Virus record (IMG/VR): IMGVR_UViG_3300014682_000024
Span: 1 to 43,160 of that record
Strand: one strand, 5' to 3'
Length of the DNA stretch: 43,160 nt
From: a virus
Taxonomy: Duplodnaviria; Heunggongvirae; Uroviricota; Caudoviricetes
In this document: piece after piece, positions 4,360 through 24,118 of the stretch
Layout of the letters: each line of letters starts with the position of its first letter
Position numbering within the stretch: the stretch's first letter is position 1
The notes under the pieces: model-generated
Databases searched by the model: none
Seen by the model: the letters and a program-made list of their open reading frames with translations, nothing else
Told to the model about the DNA's origin: nothing
Made by a program: the position numbers and the translations under genes

Positions 4360-5448
4360 TTAACCAAAATAATTGACGCCTTTTTTCTTGCCACTGGCTT
4401 TCCCCTTTGCAGAAATATCCGTGGTCAGTGACAGATTCAGCGTAAATCCCTGTCCCGGTACCAGTGAAAACTCCACAGACTCAGCCTGCCAGTGATGGTC
4501 CTCACGCACACCAAATCCCTGCGTGACAAAACGCATCTCCGCCCCTGCTTTCAGCAGTTCCGGCCTGCAGGGCAACGTTATCGTCATCTGGCGTCCGGCT
4601 TTCTGCACACGTTTAACCTTCGACTCTGCACAGTGTTTTGCGGTGCCCTGGTCAGGCTGGGTAAACGGATGCCGCTTATCTGTTGACTCCACGTCAACTT
4701 TAACTTCACGTGTGCGTCCGTCACGGGCATCAAAATACCGGACCCCAACTTTCCCGCTCTTTTTATCCCCCTTCGCACCACCCGCAGCGCCCTGTCGCTC
4801 ACCTTCACGATAATCCCAGTCTGATACCATACCCGGCGTAATGGTTATCTCAGGCGCATTTCTGCCCCCCGTACTCTGTGATGCCCCGTATTCCAGAAAT
4901 AACCAGTAGCCATTGGTCGGTTTACTGGTGGCGCCGTACATACCTGCAATGCGGGACAAGAGAGCAGCATCAGATTCTGATGACTGCATCACCCACGGGA
5001 TATGAATATCAGCAAGCACCGATGAGACGCGCGCCACCAGATTATTTTCAGTGGCGATGGTTTTCACCAGGTCGCCCAGTGTGATATCGCTGAAAGCCCG
5101 GGTTTTCAGTGCGGTCACGTCTGCGCCATGTTTTGACGCATTCATGGGGGCTGCGGTGGCATAAATGGTGAGCCGGCGGGGAGGACCACCGCTTGCCACC
5201 TGACAGACGGTAAAACTGCCTTTATTGACCAGATTTCCGTTGAACCCCAGTCCCAGCGTTAGCACCGCGCCTTTCGGTGGTAACGCCAGCGTCTCGCTGA
5301 ACAGCGTTATCATCAGTTCATCGGACCGCTTTGTGCCAGCACCATTATCGGTATATCGCAGTTCAGCCAGCCCCCGTTTTAGGGCCTTCGTGATATCCTG
5401 GCCTTCCGCTGTCAGGCTGAAATCCGGCTGATATTCATTCAGTCCCAT
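4360..5448 (-). CDS. Tail protein D (P2 gpD / late control D family)
   Basis: Size and position at the end of the contractile tail cluster after U and X. Confidence 0.7.
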   Translation of the reverse strand: MGLNEYQPDFSLTAEGQDITKALKRGLAELRYTDNGAGTKRSDELMITLFSETLALPPKGAVLTLGLGFNGNLVNKGSFTVCQVASGGPPRRLTIYATAAPMNASKHGADVTALKTRAFSDITLGDLVKTIATENNLVARVSSVLADIHIPWVMQSSESDAALLSRIAGMYGATSKPTNGYWLFLEYGASQSTGGRNAPEITITPGMVSDWDYREGERQGAAGGAKGDKKSGKVGVRYFDARDGRTREVKVDVESTDKRHPFTQPDQGTAKHCAESKVKRVQKAGRQMTITLPCRPELLKAGAEMRFVTQGFGVREDHHWQAESVEFSLVPGQGFTLNLSLTTDISAKGKASGKKKGVNYFG

Positions 5449-5657
5449 AACTGATACGTCTCCTTCACTTCCGGTTCATATACCCAGTCCGGCAACACGA
5501 TTTCCACTCCCGCCGGATAGACCGGACCAAGGTCAGCCAGTCCGGGATTGGCTTCCAGTACCGCCGCCAGTGACTGGTTAAGCCCGGTACTGCCATAGTG
5601 TCTCTGGCAGATGTCATCCAGCATATCGCCGTCAGTGGTCCGCCAGTTTTTCGCCAT
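5439..5657 (-). CDS. Tail protein X (P2 gpX-like, LysM-like)
   Basis: 72 aa; motif GDMLDDIC.RHYG...VLEANPGLADLG...LPD...LW as in gpX. Confidence 0.75.
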   Translation of the reverse strand: MAKNWRTTDGDMLDDICQRHYGSTGLNQSLAAVLEANPGLADLGPVYPAGVEIVLPDWVYEPEVKETYQLWD

Positions 5658-6126
5658 AGTATTTCAGCTCCAGTGTGAACGTTTTGTTCTTCGGCGCACC
5701 GCCGGGAAGAAAGGACGTGGTGTTATCTGAATAGGCGGTTGCCACGAAATACCCCATCACATCACCTGTGCTCGAGACCAGAAGATGCGGGGCCGGATTG
5801 TCATCCACCATCTGAACCAGTGTATCAAGGGCATCCATTCCCACACCGTCACGAAATCCCGCGTGCGCCATACCTTCAAGGGTTATTGTTCTGGCCCCCT
5901 TGCCGGTATACTGCAGCAGATCGTTTTTTCCGATAAGCTGTTGTTCATCCCATCGCCATTCCATCGTGCGCTTCATGGCGTTATAAGCAGCAGTATCAAT
6001 ACTGAATTCAAACTCACCAAACGACAGCATGACGCGGGAGGCGACATCCGTTAATGATCCCACCGCGTCCCATGCTTCACGCTCAAGCCGGTTTACGCCC
6101 CAGCCCAGCAAATCCACCATATTCAC
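5632..6126 (-). CDS. Tail protein U-like
   Basis: Position between tape measure and X/D as in P2 and R-pyocin clusters; size about 164 aa. Confidence 0.55.
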   Translation of the reverse strand: MNMVDLLGWGVNRLEREAWDAVGSLTDVASRVMLSFGEFEFSIDTAAYNAMKRTMEWRWDEQQLIGKNDLLQYTGKGARTITLEGMAHAGFRDGVGMDALDTLVQMVDDNPAPHLLVSSTGDVMGYFVATAYSDNTTSFLPGGAPKNKTFTLELKYYGEKLADH

Positions 6127-21678: not shown

Positions 21679-21681
21679 TCT

Positions 21682-23640
21682 TTATCCTCCACTCAGTGCA
21701 GCCGCGATTTCTTCCAGACTCATCTCATCGTCGTCCTGCTCATCTCTTCTGGCACGGGCCAGTGCTTCAAGATCCAGCTGCCACCGCTGAACTGAAATAC
21801 GCAGGGCAGCATAGGCATATACCAGGCAGTCGAGGGCTTCGTTGCGTCGCCCTTTTTTATCCCACAGCAGTTTCACCCTGCCATTAACCACCTTCTCCAC
21901 CAGCTCTTCCGCCACGATCTGACGCGCCTCTTCTTCCGAAAAAATGTCGGGGTTATCCGGAAAACGGAAGGTATACGGGGCGGCTTCACTGGCAGAGACC
22001 ACTGGCAGGGCAAAACGGGCGTACAGCATTTCCTTGACGGTATCGGAGCCCACCTCACATAAAAACACACCACGCTGGTTGCGCTTTTTGGGCATGGTGA
22101 TCACCGGCTTGCCGTACACCGATGCCCCTTTTATGGGAAGCACAAAAAAAGTGCCGTGTTTCCTTGAACGCTGATACACAATGTCCTGGTCGATACCACC
22201 GGTATCCCAGCAGACACGGGAAATGGAAATTTCAGTACCGTCAGCATGACGATATTTTTTCCGGATCACCGTATCAACACGTTTAAGGGTGTCCTCGTCT
22301 TCCGGTCGTCCCATGATAATTTGCTTATCAATCAGAAAGGCTTCTTCGCCGGGAGCCCAGCCCCAGACATAAATTTCATAGCGATCTTTCTGGGAGTCGA
22401 TCCCTGCGGTCAGGTAAACCACCCGCGGGGGAACCTGCGCGCCATAGTGGCAGACCTTTTCCAGTAACAACTCAAAACTCAGCTTTTCTGCCACAGCCTC
22501 TTCATAGGGCTCCCCGAGCGTGGTGTTAATAAACGTCTTGACGCCGTTCGGATCCTTCAGCGCATCCAGCCAGTCGTAGACAATCTGCACCCAGGTGGTG
22601 AACGGACTGTACGCCGTCCAGATGTGGTACGAGATTGAGCGCGGTGGCGGCATCTCCTCATCACCGGCGCTGTAAAATGTCAGGCCATCACGCGTCCACA
22701 TCCCGGTATTGTCACAAATCCAGCGTCCGTCGGTCTGGTCAAGTTCCGACTGCCGGATCACACAGCCATTATGTTCACACAGGTAATACACCGTTTCCGG
22801 TTTACCCTTCTCCCATTTCAGGCCAAACGGCGTCGCATCATCGCCAAACTTCAGATACTGGGCCTCCCCGCAATGAGGGCAAGGGACATAAAACCGCATG
22901 AAATGCGCAGATTCATTCGCGGCTTTCTCAATCTGACAGGAACCTTTGATTTTTGGCGTTGAGCCGCGTATGGATTTAGGCCATACCGAACCTTCGATAC
23001 GTTTATCACCAAGCAGCGTCGGCGAACCTTCTTTTTCCACATCCGGTTCAAACGAGGAGAGTTCGTCATAGCAGACCACATCCACAGATTTTTCACGGTA
23101 GTTTTTAGCTGCGGCACCGCCCAGGCACCAGAACCCCACACCGGAGGAAAAACGCTTCAGGGTGAGTGTATTATCGCGATGTTTTCTTCCGAACCATGGA
23201 GCCAGCTCCAGCAATGCAGGGACATCCCTGATCGTTGGCTCAACATGAGATTTCATGAAATCTTCTGCCGCAGAATCTGTTGGCTGAAAAAGCAGACTGT
23301 TACGGGATTTATGCTCAATAAAATAAGCCTCCACCCCCAACAGCATTTTGGTGTAACCAACGCGCGCCGATTTAATCAGATTAACGGTGCGGATCCGGTC
23401 ATTTCCCATGCTGTTCATAATAGCAACCTGAAACGGCAGGGTTTCCCATTGCCCGGGAGTGTATGAAGATTCTTTCGGCAGATAATAATGTTGATCAGCC
23501 CACTGAACCGTCGTCAGTGGAACCGGAATATTGAGAGATAAAAGCCCTGTAGCTATCGCACCGGCTGCATTAGCTGCCTTCTGTGCGTCTGAAATCATCA
23601 ATCCACCTGCCCACGTTTTCACCGGCTTTAGCTGCAACAT
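21682..23640 (-). CDS. A: Terminase large subunit (lambda gpA-like)
   Basis: Long collinear motifs with lambda A ([133 protein letters not shown]); start may be internal. Confidence 0.9.
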
Positions 23641-24118
23641 TGGAGGCTTTCGCGATTTCAGTTTTCACCACATCAAGGTGTGACGGTGAAATATCCGGAT
23701 ATTTACGCTGTAATGTCAGCGGCACACGTACAAGTATCCCCGAAATCTCCTGTGCCACACGTTGCAGAATGAAGGTAAACAATTCCGTTTCCAGCACCAG
23801 CCCTTCTTCACGGGCATTTTTCAGCTCCTGTGCGTCAGCCTGTGCTTTGGTGAGCCGGTAGCGTTCATAGTCAATGGTGCCGGGTTGTAAATCTGATTCT
23901 GCAGCCGCACGCAAATCTTCCAGTTCTTTGCGGAGCTTTTCGTTTTCGATATCTTTTTCCCGCTGCGCATACCACTCAATGGCTTCTGCAGTATTGAACA
24001 TGGCTTCGATACCTTTGCCTCCCCCCGACAAAACTCTCAGCCCCTGACTTTGCCAGCTAGTGATTGTTCTGACATCGCACTCAAAAATTTCCGCCAGTTT
24101 CTTTTTGTTAACCTTCAC
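23570..24118 (-). CDS. nu1: Terminase small subunit (lambda Nu1-like); GTG start
   Basis: N-terminus .[45 protein letters not shown] as in lambda Nu1. Confidence 0.85.

Follow-up and report, generated by a model that had tools for sequence, protein, structure and literature searches.

A lambdoid Escherichia coli phage region predicted to join a phage 21-type head to a P2/R-pyocin-type contractile tail

Gene content of the window

The IMG/VR record IMGVR_UViG_3300014682_000024 is a stretch of viral DNA of 43,160 nucleotides (nt), the whole of which is referred to here as the window. The subject of this report is its 19.8-kb morphogenetic region at positions 4,360 to 24,118. By sequence, the window carries a complete lambda-type packaging and head gene set with a putative cos region, and a complete contractile-tail set (Table 1). 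The minus strand carries every large open reading frame (ORF) from 43 kb down to 0.6 kb, and the morphogenetic ORFs are full length in 26 of 26 cases. A preliminary description of the region had proposed a mosaic virion, with head genes in the lambda order and tail genes in the order of a contractile-tailed phage. The head order Nu1-A-W-B-C-D-E-FI-FII was confirmed on the minus strand from 24118 to 16004 with the coordinates correct (Pfam E-values of 1e-12 to 1e-94), and the tail order V-W-J-I-H-G-sheath-tube-E/E'-T-U-X-D was recovered from 14754 to 4360 on the same strand using Pfam, PHROGs, and tblastn. The gene list itself was incomplete, as two neck genes between FII and V and an extra Stf-type fibre pair downstream of D had been missed. 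Protein-level searches against lambda, P2, and phiCTX placed the head in the lambda family and the tail in the P2 family.

Table 1. Features of the head, neck, tail, fibre, and regulatory regions (identities are for amino acid sequences; terminators and hairpins are predicted)
Feature	Coordinates	Strand	Evidence
Q antiterminator, presumed late-operon regulator	29895..30590	-	Pfam Phage_antiter_Q 1.9e-82
Hairpin and T-run after moron, upstream of cos	24402-24429	late strand	
Putative lambda/21-type cos region	24150..24310	-	aligned with left ends of lambda and phage 21
Small terminase, Nu1 type	23570..24118	-	Pfam 2e-85; 88% to phage 21, 53% to lambda
Large terminase, gpA type	21682..23598	-	Pfam GpA_ATPase 8e-55, GpA_nuclease 6.5e-69; 82% to phage 21, 65% to lambda
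gpW head completion protein	21469..21678	-	Pfam gpW 4e-25
Portal, lambda gpB family	19901..21424	-	Pfam 1.5e-94; 74% to phage 21
gpC S49 prohead protease and Nu3-type scaffold region	18295..19911	-	Pfam S49 1.6e-33; 61% to phage 21, 54% to lambda C
gpD head decoration protein	17921..18256	-	Pfam HDPD 6.5e-23; 74% to phage 21
Hairpin and T-run, D/E intergenic	17876-17900	late strand	
gpE major capsid protein	16824..17852	-	Pfam 2.8e-65; 82% to phage 21; solved lambda capsid protein 7vi9 2.7e-129
Terminator-like hairpin after capsid gene (E/FI)	16801..16819	-	-14.4 kcal/mol, z -4.2
FI packaging chaperone	16408..16773	-	Pfam FI 1.6e-13, N-terminal 53 residues only
FII head-tail connector (head closure protein)	16004..16408	-	Pfam Phage_attach 3.8e-12; PHROG Hc1 5e-28; solved lambda gpFII 3.8e-6
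Neck1/tail-completion-like protein, 240 residues, positional analogue of lambda Z	15301..16023	-	phrog_27 5.5e-28
Tail terminator/collar, 183 residues, R2-pyocin PA0615 homologue	14738..15289	-	profile of its homologues
gpV baseplate spike	14131..14754	-	PHROG baseplate assembly protein 1.3e-23; 26-28% to P2/phiCTX V
gpW/gp25 baseplate wedge protein	13741..14097	-	Pfam 3e-15
gpJ baseplate protein	12852..13766	-	Pfam Baseplate_J 7e-22; 41% to P2 J
gpI baseplate protein	12269..12859	-	Pfam Tail_P2_I 2e-35
gpH-type tail fibre	10845..12272	-	Pfam tail-collar N-terminal domain 4e-14; 49% to C-terminal part of P2 H
gpG fibre assembly protein	10300..10842	-	Pfam Caudo_TAP 1e-22; 39% to P2 G
Intrinsic-terminator hairpin with T7 run (G/sheath)	10264..10281	-	ends 12 nt upstream of sheath ATG
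Tail sheath	8770..10245	-	Pfam 1e-16 and 1.6e-14; PA0622 9e-52; 35% to P2 FI
Tail tube	8255..8773	-	Pfam Phage_tube 1e-22
Terminator-like hairpin (tube/E)	8219..8236	-	-14.3 kcal/mol, z -4.6
E (7893-8195) and predicted E/E' -1 frameshift product	7756..8195	-	Pfam TAC_7 5.6e-12
Tape measure T, 550 residues	6123..7775	-	PHROG tape-measure families; 39-42% to yong2 and Chris1 homologues
gpU	5632..6120	-	Pfam P2 GpU 3e-27; PA0626 ('ripcord') 1.3e-14
gpX, LysM-like tail protein X	5439..5657	-	Pfam 1e-19; PDB Tail protein X 1.5e-11; PA0627 ('glue') 1.9e-9
gpD baseplate hub	4360..5448	-	phrog_52 1e-95; R2-pyocin hub 1.2e-18
Second, Stf-type fibre, 1042 residues	1207..4335	-	Pfam phage_tail_N 1.8e-55, lambdoid N-terminal domain
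DUF4376 fibre assembly or fibre-tip protein	615..1193	-	Pfam 1.3e-16; phrog_1141 1.8e-85

Head and packaging module

The similarity of the head to that of lambda, which the preliminary description had called strong, is real at 50-65% amino acid identity, and the head is closer still to that of phage 21 (47-88%, tblastn). Nucleotide identity to phage 21 is 71-82% over most of the module and extends up to position 16655 inside FI. On the basis of these amino acid and nucleotide identities the head is phage 21-type rather than strictly that of lambda. The gene order Nu1-A-W-B-C/Nu3-D-E-FI(-FII) and a putative lambda-type cos region are shared with both phages, whereas the C-terminal two-thirds of FI is unrelated here. 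As judged by tblastn identities, FI and FII are far more diverged than the remaining head genes. FII has only 34% amino acid identity to lambda FII and gave no tblastn match (E <= 1e-3) to phage 21 FII.

The putative cos region matches lambda 23-69 at 81% (blastn). A putative cosN-like 12-mer at about 24305-24294 is followed by a conserved CGCTATTTATGAAAATTTTC block and then by cosB-like sequence. The 12 nt aligned with cosN differ from those of lambda and phage 21, though the cosN/cosB block is homologous.

Tblastn detected no homologue in the window of the lambda tail genes Z, U, V, G/T, H, M, L, K, I, and J, and no match at E < 0.07 to the P2 head and packaging genes Q, P, O, N, M, and L. 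A lambda-like non-contractile tail and a hidden P2-like head in the window are excluded by these searches.

Contractile tail module

The tail proteins belong to the P2 family of myovirus tails, as had been proposed, with 26-51% amino acid identity to P2 and phiCTX by tblastn against the fetched genomes. The best solved-structure matches of the sheath, U, X, and D are parts of the R2 pyocin. The Pfam GPD match of the hub protein (5.6e-5) is below the Pfam cut-off, and the assignment of D is supported by PHROGs and tblastn. The sheath is 491 residues long, compared with 396 in P2 and 386 in PA0622. Its alignment with the pyocin sheath begins only at residue 145, and hence the N-terminal part has no pyocin counterpart; it is probably an additional surface domain. 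The tape measure protein has 550 residues against 815 in P2, and the tail is therefore predicted to be roughly one third shorter than that of P2.

The 3' end of E reads GTT TTT TTG, forming the slippery sequence T_TTT_TTG at 7935-7929. A -1 slip here would open a 57-codon extension that ends at a stop at 7756, overlapping the T start codon. The predicted E+E' product has 146 residues compared with 142 in P2, which has the same heptamer. Three relatives (L001, L010, and L019) retain the heptamer and a 50-57-codon extension in the -1 frame, with diverged E' sequences. The E' extension has no Pfam match, and BLAST comparison of E+E' with that of P2 was not significant (E-value 0.65). It is the slippery site and its conservation that point to a programmed frameshift. 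Relatives that have the other tail order (discussed below) showed no strict heptamer.

Neck genes and collinearity with the R2 pyocin

The first of the two neck genes encodes a 240-residue Neck1-like protein that has no Pfam or PDB match, and its AlphaFold2 model has a predicted local distance difference test score (pLDDT) of 50. The second encodes a 183-residue protein which itself has no family name, but a profile of its homologues matches the R2-pyocin collar protein PA0615 at 2.7e-4. With this ORF as the PA0615 homologue, the genes from 15289 to 4360 match PA0615-PA0628 of Pseudomonas aeruginosa one for one and in the same order, comprising the collar/terminator, V, W, J, I, H, G, sheath, tube, E, T, U, X, and D. 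Both clusters have the terminator immediately ahead of V, and X flanked by U and D. The position of X, which the preliminary description had likened to that in R-type pyocin clusters, was seen directly in an R-pyocin-type locus (L100) fetched with a back-translated PA0615 peptide. The order there is V-W-J-I-H-G-sheath-tube-E-T-U-X-D, with U at 10216-10608, X at 10589-10792, and D at 10817-11794. The pyocin differs in having no head, packaging, or neck genes and in being regulated by PrtN/PrtR, and R-pyocin identities to this tail are only 27-47% at the amino acid level.

P2 and phiCTX (Peduoviridae) have the same tail families, the same internal order within V-W-J-I-H-G and FI-FII-E/E'-T-U-D, and the same T_TTT_TTG -1 frameshift. 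However, their X lies upstream of the lysis genes, with R and S in a head/lysis operon, and no homologue of P2 R or S was found by tblastn or profile search. Their tail genes are also divided among three operons, whereas here they form one uninterrupted block.

Regulation and lambdoid context

The early region contains a CI-like helix-turn-helix repressor (plus strand), a P22-type Cro, a DnaT-domain protein, lambda P, RusA, and DUF968. The Q gene is placed downstream of RusA and DUF968, and is followed by a DNA methylase, tRNA-Thr, tRNA-Gly, two holins, and an M15 endolysin ahead of the small terminase gene. The layout is thus lambda-like, running from CI/Cro through replication and nin-region genes to Q, lysis, and then morphogenesis. 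The region downstream of Q has 93% nucleotide identity to the Shiga toxin (Stx) phage phiP27 in the methylase region.

Several intergenic hairpins followed by T-runs are found on the late strand, one upstream of cos and the others within the morphogenetic region (Table 1), with folding energies of -11 to -20 kcal/mol. Hairpins of similar sequence are conserved in position in the Serratia relative L010, at G/sheath and tube/E, and in phage yong2, downstream of the capsid gene and of V. This conservation of position spans relatives at 40-68% amino acid identity. The preliminary description had suggested that the tail is expressed from a lambda-style late operon rather than from Ogr-type promoters. 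The sequence fits this proposal: the conserved internal hairpins, the Q gene, and the lambdoid early region are consistent with Q-dependent late transcription, which we infer to operate here. Tblastn with Ogr gave no homologue in the window, in the relative L001, or in the yong2 and Chris1 genomes, both complete.

Alternatively, the tail might be transcribed partly from its own internal promoters, as in P2, with the hairpins acting as true operon ends. The hairpins at G/sheath and tube/E have the canonical terminator form, and G/sheath is where the V operon of P2 ends. Nevertheless, a promoter downstream of the G/sheath terminator would have no room because only 12 nt remain before the sheath ATG. 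TGT-N12-ACA sites number 12 in the window, with ~10.5 expected, and neither such a site nor a sigma-70-like site is present upstream of V or the sheath gene. Together with the lack of an Ogr homologue and the presence of Q, these observations make internal tail promoters distinctly unlikely.

Distribution and integrity of the element

Of 5426 complete E. coli genomes, 70 carry at least 80% of the 19.8-kb region at 96-97% identity, and the count is 73 when only the tail half is considered. Carriers include E. coli strains SC407 (NZ_LR778141), TUM9812, and E41. In SC407 the prophage is located beside the trp operon, where ompW is disrupted. The same head and tail arrangement occurs in Serratia (L010) at ~40-68% amino acid identity. 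Among 50,697 phage genomes, the sheath is matched best by that of Hafnia phage yong2, at 63%, and by that of Citrobacter phage Chris1, at 61%.

As only prophage copies are known, with no isolated phage of the lineage in the phage collection, the element could be a defective prophage whose genes are intact but which gives no infectious phage and, at most, tailocin-like or transducing particles. We consider this a small chance only, in view of the full-length morphogenetic ORFs, the intact frameshift site, putative cos region, and lysis genes, and the finding that copies 3-4% apart at the nucleotide level are nevertheless intact across the 70 genomes. The least credible alternative is that two adjacent elements, a tail-less lambdoid prophage and a P2-like remnant or R-type tailocin cluster, have been taken for one virion; the gene-for-gene collinearity of the tail block with a headless pyocin and the clearly different histories of head and tail would suit it, but no integrase, att site, regulator, or lysis cassette separates the halves, the genes run in one direction across gaps mostly below 70 nt (the E' frame occupies the 118 nt that separate E from T), the neck genes W, FII, Neck1-like, and terminator bridge head and tail, the same tail family always adjoins a head module in the surveyed relatives, and the retention of the combination in Serratia as well as in the 70 E. 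coli genomes implies that selection acts on the whole.

Recombinants and the head-tail junction

The closest sequenced phages, yong2 and Chris1, have lambdoid genomes and the same tail family (40-63% amino acid identity), the same trio of FII, Neck1-like protein, and terminator, and X between U and D. They differ from the element in the window in a head with a protease::capsid fusion gene, and in the tail order V-sheath-tube-E-T-U-X-D-W-J-I-H-G. A survey of modules in 12 Enterobacterales genomes and 80 IMG/VR contigs found all four combinations of the two head types with the two tail orders (34, 22, 10, and 6 contigs). In every surveyed relative, X is flanked by U and D.

Four contigs of the survey (L068, L072, L054, and L063) carry this head at 87-98% nucleotide identity up to exactly position 16658 inside FI, beyond which they have the other-order tail at only 37-62% identity. 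The head proteins of L068 and L072 are 98-100% identical in amino acid sequence to those in the window. L031 is the reciprocal recombinant, in which a head of the yong2 type precedes this tail (92-99% amino acid identity, from 16087, close to where FII ends). The nucleotide homology to phage 21 likewise ends at 16655, around codon 39 of FI. Because the reciprocal recombinants break at 16658 and 16087, the boundary between head and tail is the C-terminal part of FI plus FII and not the FII/V border. The junction therefore falls inside FI-FII and not after FII, as the gene lists of the preliminary description had implied. A rule that FII always travels with the tail was considered and dropped, since FII of L031 is only 41% identical despite the 92-99% identity of its tail.

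Behind the FI breakpoint (16655-16658) three different tails are found: the siphovirus tail of phage 21, the tail in the window, and a 50%-diverged contractile tail of permuted order. The use of one FI breakpoint in three tail contexts suggests a domain-boundary recombination hotspot. Extending this, the FI-FII interval may be a reusable 'socket', with the FI breakpoint joining one head to three tails, and the R2 pyocin cluster may derive at least partly from a single-operon tail module of this kind and not from a P2-like phage. Such a descent is proposed because the placement of the R2 collar gene and of X matches this module and not P2/phiCTX; the combined proposal is tentative and, on balance, unlikely to be correct as a whole.

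The hairpin/T-run elements of the pattern CCGC..GCGGTTTTTTTATG are near-identical at 10264-10281 and 8219-8236 of the window, at 11152-11169, 15658-15674, and 17762-17781 of L010, and at 9100-9117 of the relative L003. They edge the sub-blocks that are permuted between the two tail orders, standing after V, before the sheath gene, and after the tube gene. They may be RNA elements and also short homologies for block rearrangement.

Nature of the element and proposed assembly

We estimate a probability of about 85% that the region is a single morphogenetic operon of a lambdoid temperate E. coli phage, whose predicted virion would have a lambda/phage 21-type head and a P2/R-pyocin-type contractile tail. 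Judged by its genes, the element is a lambdoid phage with a tail of the P2/R-pyocin family. It is not a member of the Peduoviridae, as its head, Ogr, promoter, R/S, and X-position features all fail to agree with that family, and it is not a tailocin because a head is present.

Several points weigh against this interpretation. The virion and its transcription are predicted from sequence, and the window stops short of the prophage ends. The late promoter pR' was not located. The role of the 240-residue neck protein depends on one PHROG match ('tail completion or Neck1 protein'). No close isolated phage is present among the 50,697 phage records, the relatives found being prophages or predicted viral contigs.

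In the proposed assembly pathway, packaging by the Nu1/A terminase would start at cos and fill a capsid built of gpE and decorated by gpD, after which gpW and FII would close the portal. The tail would assemble separately, starting from a baseplate of D, X, U, V, W, J, and I. Its length would be set by T with the E/E' frameshift chaperones, and the tube and sheath would polymerise and receive a cap made of the PA0615-like terminator, together with the Neck1-like protein. FII would then dock on the terminator. A Q-dependent late promoter would most likely drive the lysis, head, and tail genes, with read-through of several internal terminators. The phage would have arisen by module exchange, still ongoing, within a pool of lambdoid myoviruses of the Enterobacterales.

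The mosaic is a clear but unsurprising case of module shuffling, as lambda/P2 chimeras and lambdoid myoviruses are already known. Chimeras of this type have been described in the Wolbachia WO phages and in Xylella XfP1/XfP2 (PMC3235987), and a lambdoid genome with myovirus particles in Salmonella SEN34 (PMC5261728). These phages resemble the predicted design of the element in the window: either lambda-like packaging and head genes are combined with a P2-like tail set, or the particle of a lambdoid phage is a myovirus. They differ in host and are distant in sequence, and none has been reported with a head this close to phage 21. We found no paper on the present E. coli lineage, which is carried by ~1.3% of complete genomes and has no characterised phage representative. 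It leaves current views of phage evolution unchanged. Its value is as a natural example of head/tail exchange in which the junctions are resolved to one or two genes and recombinants in both directions are at hand. It is also a usable system for asking which neck proteins (the C-terminal part of FI, FII, Neck1-like, and terminator) must match for a lambda-type head to dock on a contractile tail.

Fibres and accessory genes

The second fibre set is directly downstream of the gpD hub gene. Its Stf-type fibre is internally duplicated, with residues 265-521 being 49% identical to residues 656-926. The type of N-terminal domain in this fibre is otherwise that of Stf proteins of siphovirus prophages, and here it stands beside P2-type baseplate genes. 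The C-terminal part of H together with G (10338-11690) has 94% nucleotide identity to 'Actinobacillus phage vB_Apl-pPE4', and ~150 other E. coli genomes without this tail have fibre genes 90-99% identical to it. Judging from these identities, the tip of the H fibre is exchanged as a cassette of its own.

The order Q, methylase, tRNA-Thr, tRNA-Gly (27955-29332, minus strand) is that of Stx-converting phages. The 685-nt stretch between tRNA and holin (27271-27954), which is the position of stx in Stx phages, contains only terminator-like hairpins and no large ORF.

Between the lysis genes and cos, a 267-residue ORF (24457-25260, minus strand) belongs to the K88/F4 fimbrial subunit family (Pfam Fimbrial_K88 2.5e-46). 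It has no usher or chaperone gene nearby and is bracketed in the manner of a moron by terminator-like hairpins at 25649-25671, 25365-25384, and 24402-24429. Other small genes occupy this position in the relative L001. At the left edge of the window (1-546, plus strand) lies a gene for a DUF5384 protein (1.5e-42) with a signal-peptide-like N terminus and Lys/Glu-rich coiled-coil sequence, which is probably a cargo gene near the prophage end.

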